Shown: piece after piece, positions 613 to 19,828 of the stretch
Numbering within the stretch: position 1 is the stretch's first letter
How the letters are laid out: the number at the start of each line of letters is the position of its first letter
NCBI RefSeq assembly: GCF_004010195.1
Contig: NC_057752.1
Span: forward strand, 480,405 to 500,404
Direction: 5' to 3'
Source: Chiloscyllium plagiosum
Taxonomy: Eukaryota
Length of the DNA stretch: 20,000 bases
The notes under the pieces: generated by a model
The model's database searches: none
The model's input: the letters and a program-made list of their open reading frames with translations, nothing else
What the model was told of the DNA's origin: nothing
Position numbers and translations under genes: made by a program

Positions 613-648
613 ATTCGACGTTTCGGGCATAAGCCCTTCTTCAGGAAT
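613..648 (-). ncRNA. Minimal type I hammerhead ribozyme (PLE terminal repeat)
   Basis: Reverse complement reads ATTC-CTGAAGA-A-GGGC-TTAT-GCCC-GAAA-CG-TC^GAAT: CUGANGA and GAAA core, 4-bp stem II, palindromic ACGT stem III, stem I ATTC/GAAT, GUC cleavage triplet. Confidence 0.85.
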
Positions 649-859
649 GAGGCTGGTGTGCCAAGCGGGCTGAGATAAAAGGTAGGGGGGGGGAATTTGG
701 GGGAGGGGCGCTGCGAATACGATAGGTGGAAGGAGGTGAGGGTGAGGGTGATAGGCCAGAGGGGAGTGGGGGTGGAGAGGTCGGGAAGAAGATTGCCGGT
801 CAAGAGAGTGGTGCTGAATCCGGCGGTTGGGATTGAGATGAGGTGGGGGAGTGGAAATG

Positions 860-1616
860 AGGAAGCTGGAGACGTCTACATTCATCCTGTGGGGTTGGAG
901 GGTTCCTAGGCTGAAGATAAGGCGCTCTTCCTCCAGGCGTCGTGTGGTCAGGATCTGCGATGGAGGAGGCCAAGGACCTGCATGTCCGTGGCGGAGTGGA
1001 AGGGGGAGTTAAAGTGTTCAGCCACGGGGCGGTTGGGTCGGTTGGTGCGGGTGTCCGAGAGTGTTCCCTGAAACGTTCCAAAAGTAGGCAGCCTGTCTCT
1101 ACAATGTAGAGGAGACCACATCGGGGGTAACGGATACAGTAAATGATGTGTGTGGAAGTGCAGGTGAATTTGCGATGGATATGGAAAGATCCATTGGGGC
1201 TTTGGAGGGAGGTGAGGGTGACGTTTGGGCGCAAGTTTTGCACTTCTTGCGGTTGCAGGGGAAGGTGCTGGGAGTGAAGGTGGTGTTGGTGGGGGGTGTG
1301 GACCTGACGAGGGAGTCGTGGATGGAGTGGCCTCTCCAGAACGCTGATGGGGTGGGCAGGGAAATATATCCTTGGTGATGGGGTCTGTTTGGAGGTGTCG
1401 GAAATGACGGTGGATGATACGATGTATCCAAAGCTTGGTGGGGTGGAATGTGAGGTCCAGTGGGGTTCTGTCCTGGTGGCGATTGGAGGTGCGGGGTTCA
1501 AGGGCAGAGGTGCGAGAAGTGCAGGAGATGCGGTGGAGAGCATCGTCGACCACGTCAGAGGGGGAATTGCGGTCTTTGAAGAAGCAGGCCATTTGGGTTG
1601 TTCGGCAGTGGAATTC
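860..1616 (-). pseudogene. Frameshifted PLE ORF C-terminus: RT thumb, Cys-rich linker, GIY-YIG endonuclease
   Basis: Pieces across frames: FFKDRNSPSDVVDDALHRISCTSRTSALEP..TPLDLTFHP; FPCNRKKCKTC (CxxxxCxxC); FTCTSTHIIYCIRYPRCGLLYIVETGCLLLERFREH; PVAEHFNSPFHS; LGTLQPHRMN. These match PLE GIY-YIG motifs (IY..YIGET..RF.EH..HF...H). Confidence 0.9.
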
Positions 1617-1624
1617 CCTCACTA

Positions 1625-1760
1625 TTAGACCTAATCACCACATCCTACAAATAATGTTTAATTTAGCATGGCCAATTCATTTAACTTGTATATCTTTCGA
1701 TTGTAGGAGGAAACCGGAGCTCACAGAGGAAACCTGTGCAGACACGGGAGAATGTGCAGA
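1625..1760 (-). mobile_element. V-SINE (HE1-like) fragment at the PLE inversion junction
   Basis: aatttagcatggccaat...ggaggaaaccggag...gaggaaacc..tgcagacacgggagaatgtgca resembles the reverse complement of the V-SINE central domain (recognised from memory). Confidence 0.75.
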
Positions 1761-1856
1761 ATTCCAAAGCCATTCGCATGAGCCCTCACCTCCTTCCACC
1801 TATCATATTCCCCCCCACCCCACCTTTTATCTCAGCCCGCTTGGCACACCAGCCTC

Positions 1857-1892
1857 ATTCCTGAAGAAGGGCTTATGCCCGAAACGTCGATT
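1857..1892 (+). ncRNA. Minimal type I hammerhead ribozyme (inverted PLE repeat)
   Basis: ATTC-CTGAAGA-A-GGGC-TTAT-GCCC-GAAA-CG-TC^GATT; stem I has one mismatch. Confidence 0.8.
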
Positions 1893-2769
1893 TTCCTGCT
1901 CCTCAGATGCTGACTGACCTGCTGCGCCTTTCCAGCACCACACTTTTCGACGTTGCACCTGTCCAAGCAAGTGGGGAGTATTCCATCACATTCCTGAGCT
2001 GTGTAGATAATAGACAGGTTTTGAGGAGTTAGGAGGTGAATTATTTGCTGCAGAATTCCTATCCTCTGACCTGCACTTGTAGCCACAGCATTTGTATGGC
2101 AAGTCCAATTTAGCTTCTGGTCAATGGCAGAACCCCAGGACATTGATGTTAGGGGATTCAGTGATTTCCCTTGACATTCAATGGTATTACAGTGGTTAGA
2201 TTCTCTCTCTGGCTGGAGATGGTCAGTGCCTGGCACTTATGTGGCCCAAACATGGATATTGTCTTGCCACATATGAACATGTATTGCTTCAGTACCTGAG
2301 CAGCTGTGAATGGCGCTGAACATTGTGCAATCATCAGCGAACATCCCCACTTCTGACCTTATGAGGGGCGCAAGGTCATTGATGAAGCAGCTGGAGATGA
2401 TTGGGCCTCAGACAATACCCTGAGGAACTCCTGCAGAGATGTCCAGGAGCTGATATGACTGACCTTCAAAATCCACAAACGTGTTGCTTTGTGCCATGTA
2501 TGACTTCAACCTTTGGAAAGTTTTCCTCAATTCCGATTGACTCGAATGTTGCTAGAGTCCTTGGTGCCACACTCAGTCAAAAATTGGCAATCACTCTCAC
2601 CTCACTTCTGGAATTCAGCTCTTTGGTCCATGTTTGAACCAAGGTTGTAATAAGATCAGGAGCAAAGTAGCCTTGACAGAAACCAAACTGAGCGTCAGTG
2701 AGCAGTTTATTAGGAACCAATTTTCCACATTGTCGGATAGATGCTGCTGTTGTGACTGTACTAGATAAG

Positions 2770-3015
2770 ATTTTGATGATAAATATTGCACAGAACACCA
2801 AGGAGAACTTCCCTACTGTACATACAATAATACCATGGGATCGGTGGCATCCACCTGAGTGGACATACTGGGCCTCAGTTTAGTGTCTTATCCAAATTTC
2901 CAAGAATACAGCACAGCTCCTCTGAAGGTGTATGCCTTCTCAGCATTACATGGGGATTATCAGTCCTGATTATAGAACCCAGTCTTCTGATTTAAAGGCA
3001 AAAGGGCTACCCACT
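2770..3015 (-). mobile_element. Old Deu-domain tRNA SINE (SacSINE1-like)
   Basis: ccatgggatc...catccacctgag...gcctcagtttagtgtcttatcc is the reverse complement of the motif at 5040-5170. A tRNA-like head remnant lies near 2975-3013. Confidence 0.55.
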
Positions 3016-3367
3016 TCCACACTTAACATGCAACCAAGATGTGCCTGTGGTACCTTTGTACTGCTTCCTGTGTCACTCAGTATACCTTTAGCTATCAAAT
3101 GTGTCCAGTCCAACATCGCAGAATTAATCAATGTAGCAGGTTTCTTGTAACATGTTTAAACAGTTGTTAAATTGAACTGGGTGAACTGCCATCAAATTTA
3201 CTTTTCAGTATAAAAATAGAGATTTATAGTCAAGAATGATAGACAATTTCTAAATCCACTTCTATAGTTATTAACCAAAGCTGCTAACAGAAAAATCATT
3301 TATTGCTTTGAAATGCCCTAATCAATCACATTCTTATGACAATAACAAAGGAAGTGATGTCAGCAAT

Positions 3368-3949
3368 ATGCTGTACAGGGCCCTGGTGAGACCGCACCTG
3401 GGAATATTGTGTCCAGTTCTGGTCTCCAAATTTGAGGAAAGACATTCTGGCTAATGAGGGAGTGCAGCGTAGGTTCACGGGGTCAATTCCTGGAATGGCG
3501 GGACTATCTTATGTTGAAAGATTGGAGCGACTGGGCTTGTATACCCTTGAGTTTAGAAGACTGAGAGGGGATCTGATTGAGACGTATTAAGATTATTAAA
3601 GGATTGCACACTCTGGAGGCAGGAAACATGTTTCCGCGAATGGGTGAGTCCTGAACCAGAGGACACAGCTTAAAAATAAGGGGTAGGCCAATTAGGACAG
3701 AGATGAGGAGAAACTTCTTCACCCAGAGAGTGGTGGGTGTGTGGAATGCTCTGCCCCAGAAGACAGTGGAGGCCCAGTCTCTGGATTCGTTTAAGAAAGT
3801 GTTGGATAGAGCTCTCAAGGATAGTGGAATCAAGGGTTATGGAGGTAAGGCAGGAACAGGATACTGATTAAGGATGATCAGCCATGATCATAATGAGTGG
3901 TGGTGCAGGCTCGAAGGGCAGAATGGCCTACTCCTGCACCTATTGTCTA
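3368..3949 (+). mobile_element. CR1 LINE 3' end
   Basis: LYRALVRPHL.YCVQFWSP, RRLRGDLIE, RGHSLK, NFFTQRVVGVWNALP, then the 3' tail gaatggcctactcctgcacctattgtcta. Confidence 0.9.
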
Positions 3950-4600
3950 AATAGAGAAAGAACTCAGTGAATGTTGTCACATTGAAATTTAGAACTGGAG
4001 TCTACATCATTCCTGCAGTGGAGGAAAGAACATGAACAAACAGTGATCAAATCTCCCCTTTCTTTTAAACTTTTCACAAAAGCATTGTAAATAGTTTTAC
4101 CATATTCTCAAAACTACCAGAACTCTTATTATGTTTTTTCACATTTAAAGTTTGAAAACCTAATTAGTTTTCTCTGATGTAATTAAAATATTCTTTCATA
4201 CTGCGGGAGAGAATATTTACTTCAAAATGAAGGAAAGTACACGAGTTAAATAGTATTATATGAACGTTTTCTGGGAGAGTCTGTTTCTAGCACTCCTTGA
4301 CATATTAAAAGCAGTTCTAAAACTGCTCCTGCACCATTGTGTACATGTACACATACACACACCATGCACACTGTAGACCAATGATTCTCAAACTGGAGTC
4401 TGCAGAGACATTTCAGGAAATCTGCAGCACAAGGTGGCCACCCAGGACACCATAATCAAAAGTAAGGAAGGTATTGGCAGTCAGAGCTCATTGTCTGCTA
4501 GTGCTTCATCCAGAGGTGTTTTCTCAACTGTTTTTGCCTGTGGTGGCTGCCATTGCCTTTCACTGTCAAGGGCAGAGCAAGAAGGCAGGTCTCAGGTCTA

Positions 4601-4680
4601 CCTCATCCAGAATGGAAATTGAACTTGCGGTATTGGCATTATTCTGAATCACACACTTGCCACCTAACCAGCTCAGCTAA
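4601..4680 (-). mobile_element. tRNA-derived SINE head fragment
   Basis: Reverse complement has A-box-like TAGCTGAGCTGG and B-box-like GTTCAATT. Confidence 0.45.
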
Positions 4681-4734
4681 AAAAAAACCCAAAAGAACTG
4701 CAGATGCTCTAAATCAGAAAAACAGGAATTGCTG
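4681..4734 (-). mobile_element. Short PLE terminal-repeat tail fragment
   Basis: aaaagaactgcagatgct.taaatcaga...aattgctg shares the ACTGCAGATGCT motif of the PLE tails at 525, 7820 and 19930. Confidence 0.5.
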
Positions 4735-5039
4735 ATGAAGTGTTAGTGTTGAATAAGAAGGCCCGTTGGGGATTTTCTCAACTCACCAACAATCAAACTC
4801 TTAAGTGGTCAATTAACAAACAGTTAAAGCCCTCAACTCACCACCAGCCTGATTACCCCTGTTCCTGCATGCAAGAAAGAAAGGGGACTGGTTTCTGTGA
4901 CCTGCCTGCTCAGTTAGAGGGTCCATTTGCTTCAGTCTGAATCCAGGCATTTCAGGAGTGCCTCTGACCTCCCCCTGACCTTTGTCTTCCTACAAGACCC
5001 AAAAGAGAAAGACCTTTATTCTCATAGGCCACAGCAAGT

Positions 5040-5170
5040 TAGTCCACACTGATATTCCAGCAGTGTTGCACTGTGGTTGTGATGTTTTTTGGGTGAGATG
5101 GTAAACGGAGGTCGTTTCTGCCCTCTCAGGTGGATTTTAAAAATCCCATGGTAGTATTTTAAATAGGGGA
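5040..5170 (+). mobile_element. Deu-domain SINE fragment (SacSINE1-like)
   Basis: gtgttgcactgt...gagatggtaaacggagg...ctgccctctcaggtggat...aaaaatcccatgg.agtattt resembles the Deu domain. Confidence 0.65.
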
Positions 5171-5199
5171 TTTTTAAAATGTTTATATTCATCTGAAGT

Positions 5200-5515
5200 T
5201 TCCTCCATTTCCTCATCCTACAAGTTTCTCCAGTCCCCACAGCCCTCAGATATGTGTAACACTGCAATTCTAATTATTTGAGCACCCAAATTTTAATTTG
5301 CTTCACCACTGGCAGCAGCCTTCCCTAAGCTCTAGGATGATCTCTCTCTCTCTATTTTAAGAGGCTCCTTATAACCTACTTATTTTTACTAAACATTTGG
5401 TCATCTGCACTAACGTCTCCTAAGATATGTGTGTGTGTGTGTTCACACTTCTTTTAAGTACCTTGAGCTATTTTACAATGTTTTACAAGGTGCTATATAA
5501 ACACATTGTTGTTGT
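5200..5515 (+). mobile_element. Old L2-type LINE 3' end
   Basis: ttttaagaggctccttataacctac...tttggtcatctg...aaggtgctatataaa..cattgttgttg. Related reverse-complement copy at 12350-12795. Confidence 0.55.
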
Positions 5516-5847
5516 ACCCTGGGCCAGCATTTCCTATCCTTCCCAGTCTGAGATTTCCACCACTAGATTTCAGTCTGTGTCTGGAGCTGACCTTTGTGCA
5601 CTTGAAATATTATTGCTGTCATTTCTTTACAGGGTGCAGTGCATCGTGCTGAATGTTTCCCTCTAGCTATCAGCATTCTGAGGCACTGACATTAAAAATG
5701 GAAAAAGGATCCCTCTTGTCTTCTGCCAGAGGCCATGTTAAAACTGCCACGTTCTCTCCCCACCCCCGCTTGTTCAGCAAGTAAATTCAGCAGCCAGTGA
5801 GTAGGTGTGTTACATATGATTGGATGCCATTCTGTGTTGAAGGAGCT

Positions 5848-6357
5848 TATTTATTCATTCATGCAACGTGGGTATTACTGGCTGGGCCCAGCATTTATTG
5901 CCGGTCCCTAGTTGGCCTTGAGAAAGTAGGTGAATTGCCTTCTTGAACTACTGCAGTCTGTGTGCTGTGGGTTGACCCACAATGCCATTAAGGAGTGAAT
6001 TCCAGGATTTTCAGCCAGCAACACTGAAGGAACAATAATATATTTCCAAGTCAGAATGGTAAGTGGCTTGGAGGGGAACATGCAGGTGGTGGGTGTTCCC
6101 AAGTGTCTGCTGTCATTGTCCTTCTAGATCAAAGTGATTGTGGGTTTGGAAGGTACTCGTAAGGAGCTTTGGTGAATTTCTGCAGTATGCCTTGTAGATA
6201 ATACCCACTGCAGTTTCTGAGGGTGGCAGGAGTGGATGTTTGTGGATGTGGTGCCAGTCAAACAGGCTGGTTTGTTCTGGTTTGTGCCAGCTTCTTCAGT
6301 GTTGCTGGAGCTACACCCACCCAGGCATGTGGGGAGTATCCATCACACTCCTGACTG
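5848..6357 (-). mobile_element. 3' end of the same CR1-group LINE family as 432-2730
   Basis: 6230-6357 aligns with 432-524 plus 1970-2000 (tttgtggatgtggtgcca...gtgttgctggag.t.caccc...gtggggagtat..catcaca). Confidence 0.75.
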
Positions 6358-7333
6358 ATATCTGAACTGGTGTGATCAGGGCAAGGAGCAGGGGAATGGA
6401 GGGATGGAAGTTCTACAGCTTTGTTTTCTCGGTTGGTAGGTCAACCTTCCAAAGTTTGTGCTCCTGGTTGGTGTCCAGTGTGAAAATGCTTCTGTGGGGA
6501 TGTCCAGTGAAACTCCCCAGACTCCCCTGGCTTGATTCCAGTGAAACATTTCCTCTTCAGTGCACATACATATTTCCAGACAACTGGTGCTGCAAACTCA
6601 CCCAATTGAGCTGAATTCTGTGTGCAGAAATCAGACCCATTTCACATTCTGGACTGAAAGAAGTAAGTTTAATTGGAGCCTTTATCTCAATAATACCATA
6701 TCCTACACAGTGGAGAGCAGATACAAACCTAAAAAACATACCAGGCTAACTGATGACGAGATAATTCACCCAATCAGGAGAATGCAGGAGATTTGAACAA
6801 AGTATTCTCAGTGGTCTGGAGAGAAATAATCTAGATTTAGTTCTATAGACTTGCCTTTTCAGCTCACCGAGAATCAATACAACTAGAAGGAACAAAACTG
6901 AAATCCGTCGGAAAATTCACAGCTACAAGGTGAAGCCTTAAGTTGCTATCTATCAGAAAATCATTGAGACAACTGGTGATAGACAACATTTTCTAGATGG
7001 ATAGTGAGCAGAAATATAGTACTCATCAGGAATCAATCCACAGCACAATTTAAAGAAGGATTGTTTCTGCAGCCAAGGGGAGGGGCACAGAGTGAACTGA
7101 CGTCTTTGTGACAACGACAACATCGCTGTGCATGGCATTTCTGTAAATATATTGCACTTTACTGTGATGTTTCTCGTTGTCATTTCACCACTAGCACTCA
7201 TTGCAAGCTTGCCCTTGAACAATGGCACCTGGAGAACTGGATCTGGCTCAGCAAGAATCTGCATTTAGAATATGGAACATTACAGCACAAGCCCTTCAGT
7301 CCACCATGTCTGTGCTGACCATGATGCCATTCT

Positions 7334-7448
7334 GTTATTTTCTAATCAACCTATTCAGAAATGTTCATACTTCTGCAGCAGGGTGGACTTGAAACCAGTC
7401 ATCCTGGTCCCAAATATAGGAACACTATCACTGCACCACAGGTACCCT
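7334..7448 (-). mobile_element. Short tRNA-derived SINE inserted in the CR1 3' UTR
   Basis: Perfect 9-bp TSD TGCCATTCT (7325-7333, 7449-7457). Reverse complement has A box TGGTGCAGTGA and B-box-like GTTTCAAGTCC. Confidence 0.75.
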
Positions 7449-7819
7449 TGCCATTCTAAACTCATCCTATCTGCCTGCACGAGGTCTGTATCCCCCCTGT
7501 TCACTGACTGTTGTCTGTTTAAAAGCCTCTTAAACATTGCTGTCATATCTGCTTTTACCACCTCACCTGGCAGCGCATTCCAGGCACCTACCATCTTCTG
7601 TATAAAAAATCCTTTCCTCATACATCTCCTTTAAACTTTTCCCCTCTTCACCTTAAACCTATGTCCCGTAGTATTTGATATTTCCACCCTGGGAAAAAGA
7701 CTCCATCTATCCATCCTATTCATGCATCATTTTATATATGCTTCTATCACATCACCCCTCAGCCTTCAACACTCTAGCAAAAAACAATCCAAGTTTGTCC
7801 AACTTCTCCTAATAGGCTA

Positions 7820-7987
7820 AAGTGAGGACTGCAGATGCTGGAGATCAGAGTCGAGAGTAAGGCGCTGGAAAAACACAGCAGGTCAGGTAGCATCCGAGGA
7901 GCAGGAGAATCAACGTTTCGGGCATAAGCCCTTCATCAGGATTCCTAATGCTGCCTGATCCACTATGCTTTTCCAGCACCACACTCT
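7820..7987 (-). mobile_element. Non-coding PLE terminal-repeat insertion (family A) with inverted 5' segment
   Basis: 7820-7944 is homologous to 527-648, followed by an inverted copy of the tail (~7949-7990). TSD CAACTTCTCCTAATAGGCTA (7800-7819) / CAACTTCTCCTGATGGCTA (7988-8006). Confidence 0.85.
7907..7944 (-). ncRNA. Minimal type I hammerhead ribozyme
   Basis: Reverse complement reads GAATC-CTGATGA-A-GGGC-TTAT-GCCC-GAAA-CG-TT^GATTC, with a perfect 5-bp stem I and GUU triplet. Confidence 0.85.
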
Positions 7988-8425
7988 CAACTTCTCCTGA
8001 TGGCTACTACACTCCGTCTAGGCAATATCCTGGTAATCCTCTTTTGCACTCTCTCCAAAGCCTTCACATCCTTCCCATAGTGTGGTGACCAGAATTGCAC
8101 CTAATGCACCAAATGCGGCCTAACTTAAGTCTTACACAGCTGCAACATTACTTGCCAACGTTTATACTCAATGCCTTGACTGATAAAGGCAAGCATGCTG
8201 TACACCTTCTTTACCACTTTATCCACTTGTGTTGCAACTTTCATGGAGCTAAGGACTTGCAACCCAAGATCCCCCTGTATATCAGTGCTCCTGAGGATCC
8301 TGCCATTTCCTGTTGCATTTGACCTCTCAAGATGCATCACCTCACATTTATCCAGATTAAACTCCATCTGCCATTTTTCCACCCAGCTTTCCAATTGGTC
8401 TATATCCTGCTGTATCCTTTGATAA

Positions 8426-8527
8426 AGTCAGAAGTCACAACACCAGCTTATAGTCCAACAGGTTTATTTGCTCCTTCGTCAGGTAAACTGTCCATCCCAA
8501 TCCAACACCGGTACCTCCACATCATGA
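8426..8527. mobile_element. Short rearranged insertion of second hammerhead-type repeat (family B)
   Basis: Shares acaacaccag.ttatagtccaacaggtttatttg and the reverse-complemented tail tccaacaccggtacctccacatcatga with 14906-15099. Half hammerhead CTGACGA-A-GGAGC on the minus strand (8470-8482). TSD TGTATCCTTTGATAA (8411-8425) / TGTATCCTTTTATAA (8528-8542). Confidence 0.8.
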
Positions 8528-9509
8528 TGTATCCTTTTATAACCTTTCTCATTATCCACAATTCCACCAATTTTCATGTCATCTGCAAACTTATAATGAG
8601 ACCACCTACATTTTCATCCAAATCATTGATATATATATACATTACAAACAATAGAGATCCCAACACTGATCCTTGCAGAACACCACTGTTCACAGCCTTC
8701 CAGTTAGAAAAACACCGCTCCACAACTACCCTCTGTCTTCTATGACCAAGCGAATTTTGTATCCAACTTACCAATTCACCATGGATCCCATGCGACTTAA
8801 TCTTCTGGACCAGCCGACCATGAGGGACCTTGTCAAATGCTTTAGTAAAGTCCACGCAGACAACATCCACTGCCCTACCTTCATCAATCATTATTGTTAG
8901 TTCCTCAAAAAATTAAATCAGATTTGTAAGACAAGACCTCCCCTACATAAAGCCATGCTGACTATCTCTAATAAGTCCATTCTTCTCCAAATCTGAGTAA
9001 ATCCTGTCTTGAAGAATCTTCTCCATTACGTTCCCTACACTGATGTAAGGCTCACCAACCTATAATTTCTTGGATTATCCCTGTTGCCCTTCTTAGACAA
9101 AGAAACAATATTGGCTATTCACCATGCTTCTGGGACCTCACCTGTGGCTAAAGAGGATACAAAGATCCCAGCAATCTCCTCCTCTGCCTCCTGATCCCAT
9201 CAGGCCCTGGGGTCTTATCTACCTTATTGTTTTTCAAGATAACCAACACCACCACTTTCTTAATACCAACATGCCCTGGAACATCAATATACCCCTCCCT
9301 AATCTTACCATCATCCATGTCGCTCTCCTTGGTGAATACAGATGCAAAGTACTCATTAAGAATTTCACCCACTTCCTATGGCTGCATGCATAAATTCCCT
9401 CCTTTGTCCTTGAGTGGAGCTGACATTGCCCTAGCTATCCTCTTGCTCCTAATATACGTATAAAATGCCTTGGGATTCTCCTTAATCCTACTTGCCCAGG
9501 ATATTTCTT

Positions 9510-9544
9510 AGTTAGAGACAAAAACTGCAGATGCTTGAATCCAA
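9510..9544 (-). mobile_element. 35-bp PLE tail micro-insertion
   Basis: aaaaactgcagatgcttgaatcc between AGGATATTTCTT (9498-9509) and AGGCTATTTCTT (9545-9556). Confidence 0.65.
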
Positions 9545-10597: not shown

Positions 10598-11425
10598 CTT
10601 GCGGTGGGATCCCGTCCGCACTCACCCCAGCCAGGAAAGAATTTCACATTGGCCCCAAGGTCCCGTACTTCCCGTGGGAGCCTGTGCCCCACAACCTGAG
10701 CCGCCTCCGGAATTTTAATTTTGTTTCTTTCAAGGATGTAAAAAGAAGGGCCCTGTATAGACTGCTGCTGCACACCGTCCACCTCTTCTGCCTCATCCAC
10801 CATCCGGACACGCCTTGGCGTGCCCATTTGCCACCGGGCGGTGGGGATTCCCAGTGGAGNNNNNNNNNNNNNNNNNNNNNNNNNNNNNNNNNNNNNNNNN
10901 NNNNNNNNNNNNNNNNNNNNNNNNNNNNNNNNNNNNNNNNNNNNNNNNNNNNNNNNNNNNNNNNNNNNNNNNNNNNNNNNNNNNNNNNNNNNNNNNNNNN
11001 NNNNNNNNNNNNNNNNNNNNNNNNNNNNNNNNNNNNNNNNNNNNNNNNNNNNNNNNNNNNNNNNNNNNNNNNNNNNNNNNNNNNNNNNNNNNNNNNNNNN
11101 NNNNNNNNNNNNNNNNNNNNNNNNNNNNNNNNNNNNNNNNNNNNNNNNNNNNNNNNNNNNTATTTCCCCCTCCAACTCTATTTTGATTTAGTCCCTACCC
11201 TCCCCTTCACTATTTGATCACACAGCATTGCCTTTTGTGAAGGGCACTGCTTGTCACTGGCCACTCGGGTGTTTCCTTTCTTCCTGGTGGTGGAAACTGA
11301 ATAAAGGTTCATGCACCTTGTGTCTTTCACTGTGTCTCACACCTGCACACACACACCATGGGTGCTGGGGGTAAAAATAAGCACTACCAGAGTTAGGCGG
11401 TAGTGTGGGGGTTAAAGAAAAAAAT
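10598..11425 (+). mobile_element. Tx1-clade LINE 3' portion, copy A (contains the gap)
   Basis: ALYRLLLHTVHLFCLIHHPDTPWRAHLPPGGGDSQW is typical of the Tx1 ORF2 region before the C-terminal Zn knuckle. ORF end ISPSNSILI* (11191), 3' UTR and A-rich tail follow. Confidence 0.85.
10860..11160. other. Assembly gap (301 N)
   Basis: Run of n characters. Confidence 1.
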
Positions 11426-11441
11426 ATATAAACAGGAGCGT

Positions 11442-11497
11442 CCCTTTGATGTGAAGGGCACTGCTTGTCACAGGCCACTCGGGTGTTTAAAAAAAAA
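11442..11497 (+). mobile_element. Tx1 3' UTR fragment B with premature poly(A)
   Basis: ccctttgatgtgaagggcactgcttgtcac.ggccactcgggtgttt (also at ~11797-11843) followed by A9. Confidence 0.75.
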
Positions 11498-11512
11498 GAG
11501 AAAAACATGAAT

Positions 11513-11985
11513 CTACCTCCTTGTGGGTCTGCTCCTGGGCCTGGCCAAACTGGTCATAAACAGGTCTAGGCAGCAGGCCGTGGAGGGGGTCATTAGGGCC
11601 GACTGCCTGCCCCTCTTCTGCGGTTACGTCAGAGCCCGGGTGTCTCTGGAGAAGGAGCACGCGGTGGCAACCAACACCCTGGAGTTGTTCAGGGAGAGGT
11701 GGGCGCCGCAGGGAGTGGAGTGCATTATTTCCCCCTCCAACTCGATTTTGATTTAATCCCTGCCCTCCCCTTCACTGTTTGATCACACAAGCATTACCCT
11801 TTGATGTGAAGGGCACTGCTTGTCACTGGCCACTCGGGTGTTTCCTTTCTTCCTGATGGTGGAAACTGAATAAAGGTTCATGCACCTTGTGTCTTTCACT
11901 GTGTCTCACACCTGCACGCACACAACTTGGGTGCTGGGGAAAAAAATAAGCCTAACTGCGGTAGTGAGGGGGTTGAAAAAAAAAA
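11513..11985 (+). mobile_element. Tx1-clade LINE 3' portion, copy C
   Basis: ORF 11523-11756 GLLLGLAKLVINRSRQQ..DCLPLFCGYVRARVSLEKEH..LELFRERW matches the Tx1 ORF2 C-terminus. 3' UTR is similar but not identical to copy A; A10 tail. Confidence 0.88.
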
Positions 11986-12139
11986 CAGGAGTATCAGACA
12001 TCCTGAAAAAAAACATGAATGTCAAGGGTTCTGTTCATTCAAAGCTGGTTCTGAGGGAGCGAGATCAGTGTCAGGGACCTCCATGTGTAAATAAAGGGTA
12101 ACTTGGTGACGGGATACTGGCCTCTGTGGAGTTCTTTCA

Positions 12140-12356: not shown

Positions 12357-12795
12357 TTTATGCAGCACTTTTAAGGTAGCAAAGTGTTCCAAGCTGTTTA
12401 AGAGGAAAAGTACCAAACATGAGAGTATGTTAGTATAAATGACCAAAAGGTTAATCAAAAGAGTTGGTTTTAAGGATTGACTTAAAGTGAATAGATCAAG
12501 AGGTGGCATGGTGTAAAATGAGAATTCCATATCATAAAGCCCAGGCAAAGGAAGGCACAGCTGCCAATGGTGAAGTGATTACAATCAGGAATGCTCAAGA
12601 TGTCAGAATTGGAGGAGCACAGATGTCAGAAGCATAGAAGTTAGAAGAGGTTTGAAAGATAAGGAGGGGCAGTGGTATGGTAGGATTTGAAAACAAGAAT
12701 GCAAATTTTAAAATCGAGGTGTTGACTAATCGGAAACCAACGTAAGTCAGTGAACTTGATGAGGGTTTCAGTAGCAGATAAGCTGAGACAAGGGT
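12350..12795 (-). mobile_element. Old L2-type LINE fragment
   Basis: gaccaaaagg...ttttaagga...gaattcca...aaggcacagctgccaatggtg...gatttgaaaacaagaatg; reverse-complement similarity to 5200-5515. Confidence 0.55.
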
Positions 12796-13009
12796 ATCGA
12801 CCCAACAATCATTCCACCTCTAAATCACAAAGGATGATATATTCAATAGCTTGGAGACTCAAAAAGGCAAAGGACAAAACATGTAGTCCAGCCAAATAAA
12901 AATGAAAAAAGGCAACTGAGGATGTCAACAAAAAAGCGAGATAATGGCCTCAAACTATTGAAGGATCTCAGGCACAAAATGAAGGAAACAGAATAGGTTT
13001 GACCATTAT

Positions 13010-13205
13010 GTGGTCAACAGTTGATGGGCTGAATGGCCTACTTCTGCACCTGTATCTTATAAATGGTAGAATTTGAAATTCAGTTTGAGGGTGTGAAACT
13101 TGGTTGGAAACAACTGTACTAAACATAAGGGTAACTACAAAGGAATGATGGCAGAGTTGGCTTGAAAGGTGTTCAGTAGAAAAGATGGTTGATGAACAAT
13201 GGCGG
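13010..13205 (+). mobile_element. Old CR1 fragments (3' tail 13010-13060; EN/RT linker piece resuming at ~14422-14575)
   Basis: Tail gggctgaatggcctacttctgcacct; [19 protein letters not shown]; after the young insertion, HIPVR and INQPWLT. Confidence 0.55.
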
Positions 13206-14421
13206 ATGATTGACGACAGCAGAGCAGTAGATGTGATCTATATGGACTTCAGTAAGGCGTTCGACCAGGTGCCCCATGGGAGACTGATTAGGAAGGTTAG
13301 ATCTCATGGAATACAGGGAGAACTAGCCATTTGGATACAGAACTGGCTCAAAGGTAGAAGACAGAGGGTGGTGGTGGAGGGTTGTTTTTCAGACTGGAGG
13401 CCTGTGACCAGTGGAGTGCCACAAGGATCGGTGCTGGGTCCTCTACTTTTTGCCATTTACATAAATGCTTTGGATGCGAGCATAAGAGGTACAGTTAGTA
13501 AGTTTGCAGATGACACCAAAATTGGAGGTGTAGTGGACAGCGAAGAGGGTTACCTCAGATTACAATAGGATCTGAACAAGATGGGCCAATGGGCTGAGAA
13601 GTGGCAGATGGAGTTTAATTCAAATAAATGCGAGGTGCTGCATTTTGGGAAAGCAAATCTTAGCAGGACTTATACACTTAATGGTAAGGTCTGAGGGAGT
13701 GTTGCTGAACAAAGAGACCTTGGAGTGCAGGTTCATAGCTCCTTGAAAGTGGAGTCACAGATAGATAGGATAGTGAAGAAGGAGTTTGATATGCTTTCCT
13801 TTATTGGTCAGAGTATCGAGTACAGGAGTTGGGAGGTCATGTTGCTGCTGTGCAGGACATTGGTTAGGCCACTGTTGGAATATTGCGTGCAATTCTGGTC
13901 TCCTTCCTATCGGAAAGATGTTGTGAAACTTGAAAGGGTTCAGAAAAGATTCACAAGGATGTTGCCAGGGTTGGAGGATTTGAGCTATAGGGAGAGGCTG
14001 AACAGGCTGGGGCTGTTTTCCCTGGAGCGTTGGAGGCTGAGGGGTGACCTTATAGAGGTTTACAAAATTATGAGGGGCATGGATAGGGTAAATAGGCAAA
14101 GTCTTTTCCCTGGGGTCAGGGAATCCAGAACTAGAAGGCATAGGTTGAGGGTGAGAGGGGAAAGATATAAAAGAAACCTAAGGGGCAACTTTTTCACACA
14201 GAAGGTGGTATGTGTTTGGAATGAGCTGCCAGAGGATGTGGTGGAGACTGGTACAATTGCAACATTTAAGAGGCATTTGGATGGGTATATGAATAGAAAG
14301 GGTTTGGATGGATATGGGACGGGTGCTGGCAGGTGGGACTAGATTGGGTTGGGATATCTGGTCGGCATGGACAGGTTGGACCGAAGGGTCTGTTTCCATG
14401 CTGTACATCTCTATGACTCTA
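13206..14421 (+). mobile_element. Young 5'-truncated CR1 (HER1-like) LINE, RT domain to 3' tail
   Basis: One reading frame with two stops (13566, 13692): [65 protein letters not shown]. Stop at 14342; tail ctctatgactctat. Confidence 0.95.
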
Positions 14422-14574
14422 TGTTTAGGAAACTGTTCATGAATTACAGCAAAGACATATACATATCCCAGTGAGAGCGATGAGTTTTCAGAAGTGGATA
14501 AATCAACCATGGTTAACCGAGAGAGAGGTAAGGATAGTATCATATTGAAGGAAAAATCAATGTGGCAAAGATTA

Positions 14575-15425
14575 GATGGGAATGTGGGAAGGTGATCAGT
14601 AAGTTTGTGAATGACATGAAGATTGGCTGGGTGGTTAATGAGGAAGATGGTCTTAGGTTTCAGGAGGATATTGACATTTTGGTCAGATGGGCAGATCAGT
14701 GGCAGATGGTATTTAACCCAGAAAGGGGTGAGGTAATGCGCTTTGGAAGAAATAACATGATAAGGAAGTACTCAATGAATGGCAGGGCACAAGGAAGCTC
14801 AGAAATAGAAGGATCTTGGGGGGTTTTGTCCATAGATTCCTGAAGGCAGTTGGTTCATAATGTGTTGATGAAGGCATACTAGACACTTACCTTTATCAGT
14901 CATGATGTGGAGGTGCCAGTGTTGGACTGGGGTGGACAAAGTTAAAAATCACACAACACCAGGTTATAGTCCAACAGGTTTATTTGGAAACTCTAGCTTT
15001 CGGAGCGCCGTTCCTTCACCAATGAAGGAGCAGTACTCCGAAAGCTTGTACTTCCAAATAAACCTGTTGGACTATAACCTGGTGTCGTGTGATTTTTAAC
15101 TTTATCAACCATGACATAGATTAAAGGAGCAGGGAGGTTATGTTTCGGCTGTCCAAAACTTTGGTTAGGTCACAGCTAGAGTACTGTGTGCAGTTCTAGT
15201 CACTACACTATAGGGAGGATGTGATTGCACTGGAGCGGGTGCAGAGGAAATTCACCAGGATGTTGCCTGGGTTGGAGCATTTTAGCTCTGAAGAGAGACT
15301 GGATAGGCTTGAGTTGTTTTCTTTGGAGCAGAGAGAGGACTTAATTGAGGTGTATTAGAGTATGAGGGGCATGGGCAGGGTGGATAGGAAACAGTTAAAG
15401 GGTCAATAATAAGAGGGCATAAGGG
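14575..15425 (+). mobile_element. Decayed CR1 RT fragment interrupted by a palindromic insertion
   Basis: ISKFVNDMKIG, WADQWQMVFNP, LEYCVQF, LERVQRKFTRMLPG. Confidence 0.85.
14906..15099. mobile_element. Palindromic insertion of family B repeat with two back-to-back degenerate hammerheads
   Basis: Inverted arms 14938-15018 / 15022-15103. Plus strand: CCAATGA-A-GGAG-CAGTA-CTCC-GAAA-GC-TT. Minus strand: TTGGTGA-A-GGAAC-GGC-GCTCC-GAAA-GC-TA. TSD CTTTATCAGTCATGA (14891-14905) / CTTTATCAACCATGA (15100-15114). Confidence 0.85.
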
Positions 15426-15430
15426 ATATA

Positions 15431-16227
15431 CAGATTAAATGAGTGTGCAAAAAATGTGGCAGATAGAATATAATGTGGGAAAATATAAGATTATGCACTT
15501 TGGCAGGAAGAACGAAAATCTGAACATTATTTACATGTAAAAAGACTGCAGAAAGTTGTAACACAGAGGGTCTTGGAATTCCGTGTGTGTAAATCACAAA
15601 ACATTAACACACAAGTTCAGCAGGTAATATGCAAGGCAAATGGAATGTTGACCAGATATTGACCAAAGGGAATGGAGTGCAAAAAAGGGATGCCTTGCTA
15701 AAACTTTACAAGGCATCAGTCAGGCAATACCAAAACATTGCGAACAGTTTTGTTGTTCTCATCTAAGGAAAGATACACTGGCATAGCAGAGAGTCCAGAG
15801 AAAGCACACGAGGCTGATCCCAGGAATGGAGGCATTTTCTTATGAGGAGAGATTGAGAAGGTTGGACCTGTACTCATTGGAATTTAGAAGAATGAGAGAT
15901 ATGCAGAAAGGTGGTTTCTGGGAGAGTCTAGGACCTGAGTACATAATCTTAGGGTAAGGAGTCATCAGTTCAGAGGGAGATGAGGAGGGATTTCTTCTCT
16001 TAGGGGGTAATTAATCCATGGAATTCTTTATTACAGAGGGCTATTGAAGACGGATTATTAAGAATATTCAAGGCTGAGACAGACATTTTTAATCAGTAAG
16101 TAAATCTTGGGGTATGGGAAAAGGCAGGAAAATGGAGTAGAAGATTATCAGATCAGCCACAATCTCATTGAATGGCAGAGTTGACTCAATAGGCTGAATG
16201 GACTACTTTTATATCTTATGGTCTTAT
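15431..16227 (+). mobile_element. Decayed CR1 3' portion
   Basis: WQIEYNVGKYKIMHFGRKN, SYEERLRRLDLYSLEFRRMR, tail ggctgaatggactact...tcttatggtcttat. Confidence 0.8.
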
Positions 16228-17696
16228 AAAAGGGAGACAAGAAAGCAGATGAGGCCTGGAAACACAAGTGGAGCAGTCCATTTGAATTCCCATTGGGTCC
16301 TGAAGCAGGTGGAATATTCATCCATGCCACAGAAAGCTCACAGCCACAAAGAGTCAGGGTGCCTTCCCATACTGGAGGTCCTGCTGCTATATCTCTCTGA
16401 CACTAAATGACCTGGACATTGGCAAGTCAACACTATTCAGGTCCCTGGATTGGTGAAAGTTAGGACAATAGAGGCGTCCAGGCCTAGGTAATGGACAAGA
16501 CAATCATAGTTGCACAATTTACAGATGGCCTGGCCTATAAACAAGGCAAATTAACAGTCAAAATATACCTTTGAATCTGGATCTATTGGCTGCTCACCAA
16601 TGCAGCCTTCCAGCATGTCTTTTTCCTCGCTTTTCATCTGAACCTCCACTTTCATTAATGGGAACATAAATTTCAGCCACATTACCGCAAACAGTCAATC
16701 TACCCCTCCCCTTCCAATTCTGACCCCAAACACTCTAAGCCCTCAAAAGGACCTACATGAGAGGAAAACTTCACATTCCTTCTTTCACTTCAGTCTCTGG
16801 TTTAAGTCCACAGTAGCTCAGCCTCTGAATCAATGCTCCTAATCCATATAGGTCTGTTTGCCTCGCTGAATGTCAGTGGTGTTATTCTCTGATCTTCAAA
16901 CTCTCCTCATTCTCATTGAGTGTACTAAGGTTAATAAATGTATCTGCTGAACATAGGAAGGAAAGACAGGCAACACATATAATCTATGAACAAGTGTTTA
17001 AATAGCTTTGAATGAAGTTGATAGGGACCTAGGAGCCTAAAGCAAGCTTGACATTCAACATATTCAACCAATACACATTTAAGACTATCAGAAATAGGAG
17101 CCATTTGACCCCCAAGCCTGATGTGTCATTCAATAGGATCATGGTTGATCCAACATTCCTCACATCCACTTTCCTGCCCTTTCCCCTGTAACCTACTAAT
17201 CAAAAATCTAACCATCTCAGCCTTAAAAATACACAAGGAGACTCTGCCCCCACAGCTCCCTGTGACAAGGAGTTGCAAAGTCTCTCAAACCTCAGAGAAA
17301 AAAATTCCTCCTTATCTCAGTCTCAAATTTGGCACCCCCTTATTCTGAGACGATGTCCTCTGGTCTTAAGACTCTCACATAAGGAGAAATATCCTCTCAG
17401 CATTTACCCTGTCAAACCCCTTAAGAATCCTACATATTTCAATGAGATCACCTCTCATTCTTCTGAACTCCAGTGAATAGAGTCCCAACCTGTTTAGCCT
17501 TTGCTTATAAGACAATCCCTCCTTAACAGGGATCATCCTAGTGAACCCTCAATTAAATGATGTCTTTCCTTAAATAAGGGATCAAAACTGCTCACAGTAT
17601 TCCAGATGTGGTCTCCCCAGCACCTTGTACAGTTGCAGTAATATTTCCATACTGTTATACTCCAATCCCCTTGAAATAAGGGCCAACATTCCATTA

Positions 17697-17728
17697 CTGA
17701 AGAAGGGCCTGTGCCCGAAACGTCGAAT
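17697..17728 (+). ncRNA. Minimal hammerhead ribozyme lacking its own 5' stem I strand
   Basis: CTGAAGA-A-GGGC-CTGT-GCCC-GAAA-CG-TC^GAAT. Confidence 0.75.
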
Positions 17729-17822
17729 CTCCTGTTCCCTGGATGCTGCCTGACCTGCTGTGCTGTTCCAGCAATAAAGTTTCAACTTTGATCCCCAGCA
17801 TCTGCAGACCTCACTTTCTCCT
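17697..17822 (+). mobile_element. 126-bp PLE terminal-repeat insertion (family A) starting at the hammerhead core
   Basis: Perfect 14-bp TSD CCAACATTCCATTA (17683-17696, 17823-17836). Homologous to the reverse complement of 525-644. Confidence 0.92.
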
Positions 17823-18099
17823 CCAACATTCCATTAGCCTTCCTGATTATCTGCTGCACCCTGTGTGCTAGCCTTCTGTGTTTTGTGCACCAGTACCCCA
17901 AAGTCCCTTTATGTTGCAACTTTCTGCAGTTTTTCTCCATTTAAATACCTTTATGTTGTGTTCAGTTCTGGACACTGAGACAAAGGGAATACATTTTGGT
18001 GGTGGAGCAAGTGCAGACAAAGCCAAAAGGACAATGCCTTGTATCAGATGTCTGAGTTGCAAGGGAAAACTAGGACAGGCAGAGGTAGATAAATTAACA

Positions 18100-18272
18100 G
18101 TAAGTGAGAGAGTGAAAGGTTGTTGGATAGGTTGGATCAGATCAGTCATGATCTTACTGAATGACAGAACAGATCGAGAGAGATTGTGAGGTCTGCAGAT
18201 GCTGGAAATCAGAGTTGAGAGTGTGTTGCTGGAAAAACAGGGGCCAAGTGACCTTACTTCTGCTCCTAATTT
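18100..18272 (+). mobile_element. CR1 3' tail fragment containing a minus-strand PLE tail piece (~18186-18240)
   Basis: gatcagatcagtcatgatctt..tgaatg and cttctgctcctaatt flank gtgaggtctgcagatgctggaaatcagagttgagagtgtgttgctggaaaaacag. Confidence 0.7.
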
Positions 18273-18299
18273 ATGAGTTTGTAACAGACTCCGGCATTG

Positions 18300-18570
18300 G
18301 ATTCTCAGAGGTAAATGCCTGTGAGATGTACAACATTAATAAGGGAATGAAAAAGATTAACCTGAAATCTTACTTACACAAAGCTGTGGGAGGGTAGATA
18401 TAGAGGACACAGTTTCAAACCAATAAAACTGACAAATTTTTTCAGGAGGTTTTATTCAACATACAGAGTGACTGACATGGAGATGAGTATAGGCAATCAT
18501 GGTGGAACCAGTTAAGTGACAATTTGATGCAGCAATTGGGGTTTGGGGGACATCTTTGGATGGATGGGCA
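18300..18570 (+). mobile_element. Very old CR1-like 3' fragment
   Basis: EMYNINKGMKKIN and RGHSFK resemble CR1 'EVYKI..G...V' and 'RGH.FK'. Confidence 0.4.
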
Positions 18571-18573
18571 GAT

Positions 18574-19796
18574 AGAGTCATAGAGCAGAAAAACAGACCC
18601 TTCAGTCCATCTTGTTCATGCGGACCAGATATCCTAAATTAATCTGTCCCTATTTGCCAGCATTTAATCCATATCACTGTAAACCCTTGCTGTTCATGTA
18701 CCCATCCAAATGCCTTTTAAATGTTGAAATTGCACCTGCCTCTGGCAGCTCATTCCATACAAGCACCATCCTCTGTGTGAAAAAATTACCCCCAGGTCCT
18801 TTTTAAATCCTTCCCTCTCACCTTAAACCTATGTCCTCTAGCTTTGGACTCCCATACCCTGGGGAACAGACCTTGACTATTCACCCTAACCATACCCCTC
18901 ATGATTTTCTAAACATCTGTAAGGTCACCCCTCAGCCTCCGGTACTACAGGGAAAATAATCCCAGCCTATTCAGCCTCTCTCTATAGCTCAAACCTCCCA
19001 ACCCTGGCAACATCCTTGCAAATCTTTTCTGCACCCTTTCAAGTTTCACAACATCTTCTCTATAGCAGGAAGACCAGAATTGAACGTAGTGTTCCAAAAG
19101 TGGCCTAACTGATGTCCTGTACAGCCGCAACACGATATCCCAACACCTATACTCAATGCACTGACCAATAATGGCAAGCATGCCAAAGGCCTTCTTCACT
19201 ATCCTGTCTACCTGTGATTCCACTTTCAAGGAACTATGAACCTGCACCCCAAGGTCTCTTTGTTTGGCAACACTACCCTCTCATGAAGTGTATAAGTCCT
19301 GTTCTGATTTGCCTTACCAAAATGCAACACCTCATATTTACCAAAATCAAATTCCATCTGCCACTCCTCGGCCCATCTGATCAAGGTCCCGTTGTACCCT
19401 GAGATAACCTTCTTCACTGTCCACTACAACACCAATTTTGGTTTCAACTGAAAACTTACTTATCATACCTCCTATGTTCACATCCAGATCATTCATATAA
19501 ATGACTAAAAACAGTGGACCCAGCACTGATCCTTGCAGCACATTGCTGGTCACAGGCCTCCAGTCATAAAAACAACCTTCTGCCATCACCCTCTGTCTCC
19601 TACATTCAAGCCAACTTTGTATCCAATTGGCTAGCTCTCCCTGGATTCCGTGAGATCTAATATTGCTAACCAGTTTACCATGCCGAACCTTGTTGAGTAC
19701 CTTACTGAAGTCCATATAGACAACTACCACCTGTCTACCTTCATCAATCTTCTTTGTCAATTTTTCAAAACAGTCAAGTTAGTGAGACATGATTTC
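18574..19796 (-). mobile_element. CR1 (HER1-like) RT to 3' tail, same family as 13206-14421
   Basis: [61 protein letters not shown]; tail is the reverse complement of ctctatgactct. Confidence 0.92.
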
Positions 19797-19828
19797 CTGA
19801 AGAAGGGCTAATGCCCGAAACGTCGATT
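19795..19828 (+). ncRNA. Minimal hammerhead ribozyme with weak stem I
   Basis: TC-CTGAAGA-A-GGGC-TAAT-GCCC-GAAA-CG-TC^GA. Confidence 0.75.

Follow-up and report, generated by a model that had tools for sequence, protein, structure and literature searches.

Minimal hammerhead ribozymes (min-HHRs) of Penelope-like elements (PLEs) have been in print since 2014, with thousands of copies reported per vertebrate genome (about 4,000 in coelacanth, about 9,000 in Xenopus) and with no activity as monomers and low activity as dimers (Cervera & De la Pena 2014, PMC4209133). The hammerhead of the Anolis Poseidon element PAc is described as needing the protein of the element for cleavage (Frangieh et al. 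2024, PMC11167929), and the role of PLE hammerheads has been called unclear (Craig et al. 2021, PMC8557442). Rotifer pseudo-LTRs (pLTRs) are described as having TATA and Inr-like motifs (PMC8557442; Arkhipova et al. 2013, PMC3846280), and a CX2-5CxxC linker is given as a mark of Neptune/Nematis elements (PMC8557442). In D. virilis, transcription is reported to start 46 nt upstream of an intron of 75 nt, the end of which adjoins helix I (PMC2377424, PMC4209133). Retrozymes have been reported in the one chondrichthyan sampled (10.64898/2026.07.22.740005). To this known kind of motif a shark family is added here.

We analysed a 20,000-nt stretch of a shark genome (the window), for which an earlier note had claimed five hammerheads of a Penelope-like family. 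A search with the pattern CTGANGANGGGCNNNNGCCCGAAACGT revealed five exact matches at the claimed places (618-644(-), 1861-1887(+), 7913-7939(-), 17697-17723(+) and 19797-19823(+)) and none in 200 dinucleotide shuffles of the window; chance origin of any of the five is not expected. The spans given earlier comprise the core plus the helix I strands and agree with ours within 1-2 bases (Table 1). All five copies have the core CUGANGA...GAAA...UH, an unpaired base between A9 and G10.1, the G10.1-C11.1 pair and, as dimer-type helix III, the palindrome ACGT at 15.2/16.2 without loop 3. Variation was found at the sites named in the note, namely loop II (TTAT in three copies, CTGT and TAAT), N7 (A in four, T in one) and position 17 (C in four, T in one), and the cut predicted there for copy 2 was correct. 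The C17-to-T change of copy 3 falls in a CpG and may therefore be ordinary decay; T17 is, however, fixed in one family of another animal. The proposed search with Rfam Hammerhead_1 would miss these motifs, since the nine Rfam matches up to E=5 included no hammerhead. The supposed large genomic population was borne out by two DNA runs, in which 51,119 and 78,569 contigs aligned to a stretch of 301 bp.

Table 1. Features of the window, in window coordinates
Feature	Coordinates	Strand	Details
Insertion A, left target-site duplication	508..521		12/14 identical to 1952-1965
Insertion A, tail	522..612	-	~90 nt downstream of cut site, to the family's fixed 3' end
min-HHR copy 1	613..648	-	helix I 5' strand 648-645, C3=644, predicted cut between 617 and 616; helix I 4/4 pairs
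Predicted pLTR promoter	645..681	-	putative function, from loose-end peak behind 648 and motif scan
Broken 3' part of PLE ORF	862..1616	-	tblastn to P0001; frame scan
Insertion A, inverted 5' arm	1783..1951	+	second pLTR, without tail end; matches reverse complement of ~554-742 with gaps
min-HHR copy 2	1857..1892	+	predicted cut between 1888 and 1889; helix I 3/4 pairs, U-U mismatch
Insertion A, right target-site duplication	1952..1965
Insertion B	7814..7987	-	short unit 7819-7941 (tail to CUGA), head-to-head with short inverted arm 7948-7987(+); duplication 7800-7813 / 7988-8001
min-HHR copy 3	7908..7943	-	N7=U, position 17=U; helix I 6 contiguous pairs, partly created by inversion junction
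Second-family insertion	8426..8520		duplication 8404-8425 / 8521-8542
Second-family repeat	14906..15099		head-to-head inverted insertion, joint inside CUGAUGA; duplication 14891-14905 / 15100-15114
Insertion C	17697..17822	+	126-bp short unit, first bases CUGA; perfect 14-bp duplication 17683-17696 / 17823-17836
min-HHR copy 4	17697-17728	+	within insertion C; helix I lacks core-adjacent pair
Tail-only fragment of family 1	18186..18239	-	without hammerhead; 87% over 55 nt
Insertion D	19794..19915	+	short unit inside LINE RT fragment
min-HHR copy 5	19795-19828	+	within insertion D; helix I 2 contiguous pairs
Related-subfamily tail	19916..20000	-	tail-to-tail with copy 5, running off window; ~80% identical over 67-70 nt

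The five motifs stand for four events rather than five, because copies 1 and 2, which are identical over the core, are the two arms of one insertion. All five copies are single or inverted, and no head-to-tail tandem was found among them. The LINE RT fragment around insertion D was recognised by an RVT_1 match on 19350-19778(-); for this insertion no target duplication was found within the window. The hammerhead of the adjoining related-subfamily tail, if any, lies beyond the window. A tail hairpin appeared in the folds of four of the five copies, with z-scores of -0.05 to -1.8, which are not significant.

Copy 1 lies ~220 bp downstream of a broken frame with the domain order RT C-terminus, CxxxxCxxC linker (CNRKKCKTC, 1257-1231(-)) and GIY-YIG endonuclease, in which V replaces the YIG glycine. 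The frame scan placed four frame changes near 1350, 1220, 1065 and 955. In tblastn, residues 197-461 of protein P0001 were covered (E 3e-37; 70% over 89 aa for 1616-1350). GIY-YIG and RVT_1 matches of P0001 were below Pfam cut-offs, and the ORF fragments of the window alone gave no Pfam match. A CX2-5CxxC linker was present in 104 of 110 YIG-bearing homologues among those listed, and in one of 120 proteins (P0007, from Stegostoma) the C-terminus reads through the same hammerhead motif. Direct and inverted pLTRs, a tail and short target duplications are all present in the window. Core, helix III traits and ORF context agree with the note's view that these are minimal type I hammerheads belonging to a Penelope-like family: the five motifs are real min-HHR copies in the pLTR of a PLE of the shark genome, and the linker and the vertebrate host point to the Neptune type.

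A second, decayed hammerhead family in the window had been overlooked. A relaxed descriptor detected two degenerate motifs, 15019-15047(+) and 14994-15022(-), with 2 core mismatches each, helix II GGAG/CTCC and an AGCT palindrome; 12 Markov sequences gave no exact match and one relaxed match in total. In the other insertion of this family, the hammerhead at 8470-8482(-) has lost all past the helix II 5' strand, and the inversion junction lies 2-4 nt before CTGA.

Three public runs were informative on loose ends of the first family, the DNA runs X1 and X9 (contigs) and the RNA run X21 (reads). Among the best 18 of 872 rows, loose ends before 524 numbered 1,370 contigs in X1, 1,067 in X9 and 942 reads in X21 (flank agreement 0.37-0.49), and those behind 648 numbered 284, 311 and 202, respectively (agreement 0.31-0.40; median loose part 255, 146 and 55 nt). 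Loose ends at subfamily indels (558, 564, 584, 586) served as internal control and showed agreement of 0.64-0.85 and, in contigs, lengths of 14-21 nt. At the 3' junction in X1, on the adjacent positions 524/525, 1,716 contigs continued into long, unrelated flanks. Across the family, the 3' end of insertions is fixed at ~95 nt beyond the cut site, and their 5' end falls preferentially 4 nt ahead of CUGA. The cut site is not the preferred 5' end and is absent from the six best-supported loose-end places of every run. Many copies end elsewhere than at 648, since the 284 contigs there compare with the 1,716 at 524/525. The best reading of these end statistics is that short insertions mostly derive from uncleaved RNA whose 5' end lies just before the ribozyme.

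The initiator consensus is YYANWYY, which occurs at 1.1% of window positions. The predicted shark promoter has an initiator-like TCATTCC, in which A at 648 is the preferred 5' end of the family. The TATA-like TTTAT 31 nt upstream is weak. We consider it probable that the motifs are pLTR min-HHRs of a Neptune-type PLE in four insertions, likely inert when dispersed, and that the ends of the copies reflect a transcription start and run-off copying. The pLTR would be a promoter with a TATA-like box near -30 and the first base of helix I as initiator A; because transcription would begin at this base, the ribozyme would form the first ~36 nt of the element RNA. Reverse transcription by the element's protein would begin internally, at the tail, as it does in vitro for the anole element, and the end of the insertion A tail may mark this place. 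Uncleaved RNA would be copied to its 5' end, where run-off would yield the short unit, so that short copies likely correspond to the initial ~125 bases of the RNA transcribed from the element itself. Inverted and tandem forms would result from a template jump or fold-back at the 5' end; the inversion joints 583/586 to 648 are consistent with the inverted form and the head-to-tail joints 649 to 524 with the tandem form. Long forms would arise from read-through RNA of an upstream tandem copy. The ribozyme would cleave only when dimeric or assisted by the protein of the element, on two-pLTR or tandem RNA of the element; there selection would keep the core and a paired helix I, while single copies, being partnerless, would decay. 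A start at helix I is not universal, given the upstream start in D. virilis.

The helix I boundary might instead be a point of truncation or joining, set by fall-off of the reverse transcriptase, by a template switch after unwinding of the hammerhead or by short homology to the target. We regard this as unlikely, yet several observations fit it: 3-5 nt at the junctions of copies 4 and 5 are common to insert and target, in both families the inversion junctions lie within 6 nt of C3, and RNA starts at 648 were not seen in the one library. Moreover, the ATTC ahead of the core is similar to the GATTC that follows the cut site, a homology that fits the joints from 647-651 back to 610-617 (5 of the 27 joint rows listed); these joints could also be traces of cleaved RNA. 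A stall at structure would, however, be expected at the 3' side of the fold and not just past it, and the same offset was found in another animal despite a different helix I sequence; TATA-like boxes lie there at -30 to -33.

This comparison comprised 15 metagenome loci, of which L001, L005 and L011 have the same core downstream of a Neptune-type ORF (in L011 with GIY-YIG above cut-off). In an 8-copy family, which kept the upstream pLTR in four copies, upstream identity of L009 and L013 is lost 3-5 nt before C3, and the contigs L003 and L014 start exactly 4 nt before C3. The start in this animal fits only the pyrimidine-A core of the initiator. For the five families with presumed upstream pLTR (in L007 the upstream DNA is only presumed to be pLTR), the best TATAWAW match in -36..-26, a range set after seeing the data, starts at -33, -30, -30, -30 and -31, with 0, 2, 1, 1 and 2 mismatches; equally good background windows numbered 0/340, 168/340, 26/340, 0/40 and 33/340, and the boxes are weak in the shark and L002 families. 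Over 15 distinct rows the inner pairs of helix I were U-A in ten and C-G in four, and G-C in nine and U-A in five. Covariation of helix I scored 0.228 between the two animals (0/500 shuffles; slides at most 0.093) and is essentially one lineage-level event; helices II and III were fixed by the search pattern.

The ~125-bp unit could also be an independent non-autonomous element, SINE- or retrozyme-like, re-copied from short copies or tandems by PLE protein in trans. Its fixed ends and own duplications would suit such an element, as would the head-to-tail joints 649 to 524 in 14 contigs of X1 and 9 of X9 and the published derivation of tandem retrozymes from PLE pLTRs (10.64898/2026.07.22.740005). 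Core depth in X1 was ~20-45 times that over 665-708, but contig depth ratios do not measure copy number and are raised by divergence among subfamilies. Short copies lack an upstream TATA-like box, do not differ in sequence from the end of long copies (copy 1), and their tandems are few against more than 1,700 single junctions, which makes an independent element rather improbable.

The note had further claimed that dispersed copies are able to cut host transcripts that read through them. A monomer cannot form helix III, the ACGU duplex amounts to -1.7 kcal/mol, and predicted homodimers did not adopt the active fold. Helix I is complete in copies 1 and 3 and defective in copies 2, 4 and 5; family-wide, a U-U mismatch (position 614) occurs in ~92% of X1 depth, and the majority is paired in X9. 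Within the window, the closest pairs on one strand are separated by 2.1 kb and 7.3 kb, and copies 1 and 2 lie on opposite strands. Family RNA made up 3,035 of 12,955,460 records of X21, one insensitive library (poly(A) single-cell, ~2% read), and 94% of it runs on into unlike sequence. In this library RNA depth was flat over the cut site in both directions (839/844/831 and 575/650/680 in three bins), and reads crossed it without a pile-up of molecule ends. Its start table had no place, 648 included, where many molecules begin, and reads clipped at 648 continue into mixed flanks. Cleaved RNA could have been lost before sequencing.

A large working population, cutting host read-through RNA by pairing between copies on the same or another transcript, would agree with the presence of family RNA and with variation in 612-648 being confined to 612, 614 and 640 (N7), none catalytic (40 best-supported of 131 variant rows). 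Tandem 126-nt units could dimerise, and the fall of the read-direction ratio from ~2.7 over the tail to ~1.2-1.3 over the core could be loss of one strand, if direction equals strand. The flat depth, the defective helix I, the predicted homodimers without the active fold and the published min-HHR and anole results, the latter with no RNA-seq ends at the cut site (PMC4209133, PMC11167929), argue against it, and we hold it to be very improbable. Cutting of host transcripts is unsupported, and the dispersed copies at the window sites are likely inert leftovers; were the idea true, RNA cutters would sit in shark introns in very large numbers, for which no support was found in these data.

The ribozymes themselves are expected PLE cargo, and the start-site link is a modest, mechanistic lead. 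Tentatively, and with somewhat less than even confidence, we propose that the Neptune-type transcript of sharks and at least one other animal starts at helix I and that ~125-bp solo copies are run-off cDNAs. As the transcript would start at the first base of helix I, the ribozyme would be a cap-proximal cutter. Activation by protein or a second pLTR would then cut the first 32 nt, with the cap, off the element mRNA, a switch from translation to template or decay. Solo pLTRs would be primary transposition products in which the genome preserves both the transcription start and the place where reverse transcription begins, and promoter position and ribozyme timing could be read from genomes.

Like the min-HHRs of PMC4209133, the shark motifs have a type I core with an extra nucleotide between 9 and 10.1, the G10.1-C11.1 pair and palindromic 15.2/16.2 without loop 3; they also lie in pLTRs, mostly as single copies tied to truncated PLEs, with opposite-strand pairs. 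The 4-5-bp helix I described there is complete in two of the five shark copies only, and helix II has 4 bp in contrast to 7-8 bp in Schistosoma (PMC4209133). The covered parts of that text and supplement name no sharks and describe no fixed 5' end at helix I. PAc resembles the shark family in its hammerhead at the pLTR-ORF junction, its fixed tail end (~85-100 nt past the cut site in PAc), uncleaved RNA as template and a lack of RNA-seq ends at the cut site, which for the shark was seen in one insensitive library; it differs in clade (Poseidon versus a Neptune-type linker) and in a start codon inside the hammerhead, and the covered part of the report maps no 5' end of its transcript (PMC11167929). 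Neptune EN+ PLEs share with the shark element the order RT, CX2-5CxxC linker, GIY-YIG, as well as 5' truncation, an inverted 5' pLTR, an optional tail and short duplications (PMC8557442, PMC3846280). Solo pLTRs are attributed there to recombination or deletion, whereas in the shark, solo units are flanked by duplications of their own and show a preferred 5' end. Animal non-LTR retrozymes are likewise hammerhead-bearing and PLE pLTR-derived; they form tandem arrays, with units of 363 bp on average in the chondrichthyan, in contrast to the single or inverted window copies, and the shark family shares tandem units with them in the reads (10.64898/2026.07.22.740005).

A pattern search recovered the five minimal hammerhead motifs that the earlier note had reported: the window contains exactly five matches, 200 shuffles contained none, and the coordinates and predicted cut site proposed there were correct. 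In hammerhead numbering each copy reads C3-U-G-A-N7-G-A9 plus one additional A, then helix II (4 bp, capped by a loop of 4 nt), followed by GAAA, C-G, U16.1 and, at position 17, either C or U. All structural traits listed in that note are stated features of the minimal hammerheads of Penelope-like elements (PLEs) in the available part of PMC4209133. The suggested Rfam check yielded no hammerhead match. Minimum free energy folds of the copies did not contain the active hammerhead fold, which is unsurprising in a motif dependent on a partner, and their z-scores were not significant. The view of five dispersed copies held for the motifs, but not for the insertions, of which there are four (A to D), since copies 1 and 2 share insertion A. 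Its direct and inverted arms correspond to the usual PLE layout (PMC8557442 and PMC3846280, as far as available), and copies 1 and 2, lying on opposite strands, cannot dimerise within one RNA.

A second hammerhead family, overlooked previously, has a GGAG/CTCC helix II and an AGCT palindrome; its three copies in the window are all broken at or within the core. Target duplications were sought for copy 5 and for the tail-only fragments at 18186 and 4694, and none was found. A good part of the remaining window is LINE-type reverse transcriptase (RT) debris, into which several hammerhead copies have inserted.

Features of the window, with strand in brackets where assigned
Feature	Position	Description
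Copy 1 (insertion A)	618-644(-)	Direct arm; helix I full; 14-bp duplication flanks both arms
Copy 2 (insertion A)	1861-1887(+)	Inverted arm; helix I defective
Copy 3 (insertion B)	7913-7939(-)	Short unit with small inverted arm; helix I full; 14-bp duplication
Inverted arm of copy 3	7940-7955	Its beginning may be the five bases immediately following the cut site, then a short deletion; copy 3 gains a 6-bp helix I from it
Copy 4 (insertion C)	17697-17723(+)	126-bp unit starting at CUGA, inside a perfect 14-bp duplication; helix I defective
Copy 5 (insertion D)	19797-19823(+)	Short unit; its tail meets the tail of a related subfamily that runs out of the window; helix I defective
Tail joined to copy 5	19916-20000(-)	Another subfamily; a sixth hammerhead may sit just past the window end
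Tail	565-600(-) and equivalents	Splice-acceptor-like series of a branch-point-like CTGAC, a stretch of pyrimidines and CAG; ATG whose frame stays open to the tail end
Tail-only fragment	18186-18239(-)	Related subfamily, no hammerhead
Tail-only fragment	9510-9544(-)	Related subfamily, no hammerhead; 12-bp duplication, 11/12 matching
Tail-only fragment	4694-4718(-)	Related subfamily, no hammerhead
Second-family insertion	14906-15099	Head-to-head inversion joined at/within CUGAUGA
Second-family insertion	8426-8520	Head-to-head inversion joined at/within CUGAUGA
Rfam MIR841 match	14956-15084	Second-family inverted repeat
RVT_1 match	13149-13565
RVT_1 match	19350-19778
Repeat between arms of insertion A	1621-1765	~145 bp; presumably a shark tRNA-derived SINE
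Duplicated repeat	11161-11970	~565-bp spacing; adjoins a 301-N gap
Hairpin	7100-7191	~90 bp, long matched ends; weak MIR535 match, both strands; possibly a tiny inverted-repeat element

The translation of 951-1634(-) matched, among longer proteins, only P0001, a protein of Chiloscyllium punctatum whose best relatives are found in whale shark, zebra shark and rays, which points to a shark as the host. P0001 aligned in pieces to 1616-862(-), with 70% across its first 89 residues and four frame changes. The domain order is RT C-terminus, CxxxxCxxC linker and GIY-YIG endonuclease, in which V replaces the glycine of YIG. A Pfam search of the two frameshifted window translations returned no family. 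Among 120 listed of 808 homologues, 110 carry the YIG motif and 104 of those 110 the linker, and in one zebra shark homologue the C-terminal end is a translation of the same hammerhead. A CX2-5CxxC linker is given as a mark of Neptune and Nematis in the accessible part of PMC8557442.

Contigs of two DNA runs from two organisms and reads of two RNA runs were aligned to window 500-800 at 80% likeness. The RNA run X22 was left out (0 of 8,328,510 reads aligned). The DNA runs gave 51,119 and 78,569 aligned contigs; contig counts are lower bounds on distinct junctions, and neither they nor summed contig depth are copy numbers. Among the 18 of 872 loose-end entries listed, the strongest is a 3' end before 524 (1,370 and 1,067 contigs; 942 RNA reads), with an adjacent one at 525 (346 and 304 contigs); beyond 524, after six common letters, the flanks are long, unrelated and AT-rich. 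The strongest loose end on the 5' side lies behind 648 (284 and 311 contigs, 202 reads), with a flank agreement of 0.31-0.40, and in the DNA run X9 a further 293 contigs are loose at 639, their loose letters running on to the 648 boundary. Loose ends from subfamily indels differ, being short with an agreement of 0.64-0.85. Inversion joints at 648 and head-to-tail joints 649->524 (14 and 9 contigs) agree on the 648 boundary. Position 648 is the A that opens helix I, four bases ahead of C3. None of the listed peaks falls at the cut site, even though copies beginning at that point would have 90 nt to align.

An exact motif scan of metagenome contigs revealed the same core at 15 loci of a second animal; the same scan of viral and prokaryotic contig collections gave no match. 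At three of the 15 loci a PLE ORF precedes the core, in one case with an open linker-GIY-YIG frame; downstream of L003, L014, L005 and L001 neither an ORF start nor an RT was found. Helix I differs in sequence from that of the shark and keeps its pairing. Across 15 distinct rows the two inner pairs of helix I switch between U-A and C-G and between G-C and U-A (score 0.228; 0 of 500 shuffles), essentially one lineage-level change, helices II and III being fixed by the search pattern. Alignment A2 excluded L003 and L014, which have only 4 nt upstream. In an eight-copy family the upstream pseudo-LTR is kept in four copies and lost 3-5 nt before C3 in two; the remaining two are contigs whose first base lies exactly 4 nt ahead of C3. 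All eight copies have U at position 17. This family (L002, L003, L005, L014) displays two 3' ends, near +100 and +168 counted from the start, reminiscent of an optional PLE tail.

The preferred 5' ends may reflect a transcript start at the base of helix I, a reading that we hold tentatively and at slightly less than an even chance. With positions counted from the A that lies four bases ahead of C3, the best TATA-like match within -36 to -26 has its first base at -30 to -33 in five families; it is perfect in L001, has one mismatch in L007 and L008, and is weak in L002 and the shark. The shark A at 648 sits in TCATTCC, which fits the initiator consensus (background 1.1%). Against a start at 648, no RNA starts were seen there, most copies end at other bases, and a junction at this point could also be promoted by template switching or by short homology. 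The D. virilis start lies farther upstream (PMC2377424, in the part available). A D. virilis-like splice acceptor just before helix I was rejected, with no AG there in either animal and heterogeneous flanks at 648. No paper in the literature searched, with subscription journals, Repbase and Dfam outside the search, states a transcript start at helix I, which is no proof of novelty.

With a start at the base of helix I, cDNA from an internal start would run off at the RNA 5' end and yield just the ~125-bp units observed, each with an intact-looking core. Such run-off cDNAs would fill the genome with hammerhead motifs without selection on single copies. Within 612-648 only N7 and two positions just past the cut site vary (40 of 131 variant rows listed). 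This agrees with the conservation test proposed in the earlier note, but no less well with recent copies descended from a source under constraint.

In the RNA run X21 the family occurs in 3,035 of 12,955,460 records, 94% of which continue into unlike sequence, indicating passive transcription of the copies from either side. The proposed cutting of read-through host transcripts found no support here, as X21 depth did not change abruptly across the cut site and ends did not accumulate anywhere; this does not disprove it, and X21, a fragmented poly(A) single-cell library, would miss degraded products. Five of the 27 joint rows listed link 647-651 with 610-617; one of them falls exactly at 617 and has five A's inserted on the element strand. 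The contigs concerned thereby carry, immediately before a unit that begins at 648, a piece whose end lies at the cut site (617|616) or close to it. Such joints may derive from cleaved RNA that took part in a template switch, or may be short-homology products.

A literature search found no shark or Chiloscyllium PLE hammerheads, although the supplements of a 2026 preprint and one file of PMC4209133, outside the search, may list shark families. The available text of PMC4209133 describes thousands of dispersed minimal hammerhead copies per vertebrate genome, and dimer cleavage is attributed to Lunse et al. 2016/2017 as cited in PMC6765202. For the anole element, the accessible sections of PMC11167929 report that reverse transcription is initiated internally, some 85-90 nt beyond the cut site and at the genomic tail end, that the main template is uncleaved RNA and that the ribozyme cuts only with the protein. 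In the shark family the distance from the cut site to the fixed 3' end is about 95 nt, compared with these 85-90 nt, and the shark motifs add a family to an already known kind, the PLE minimal hammerheads.
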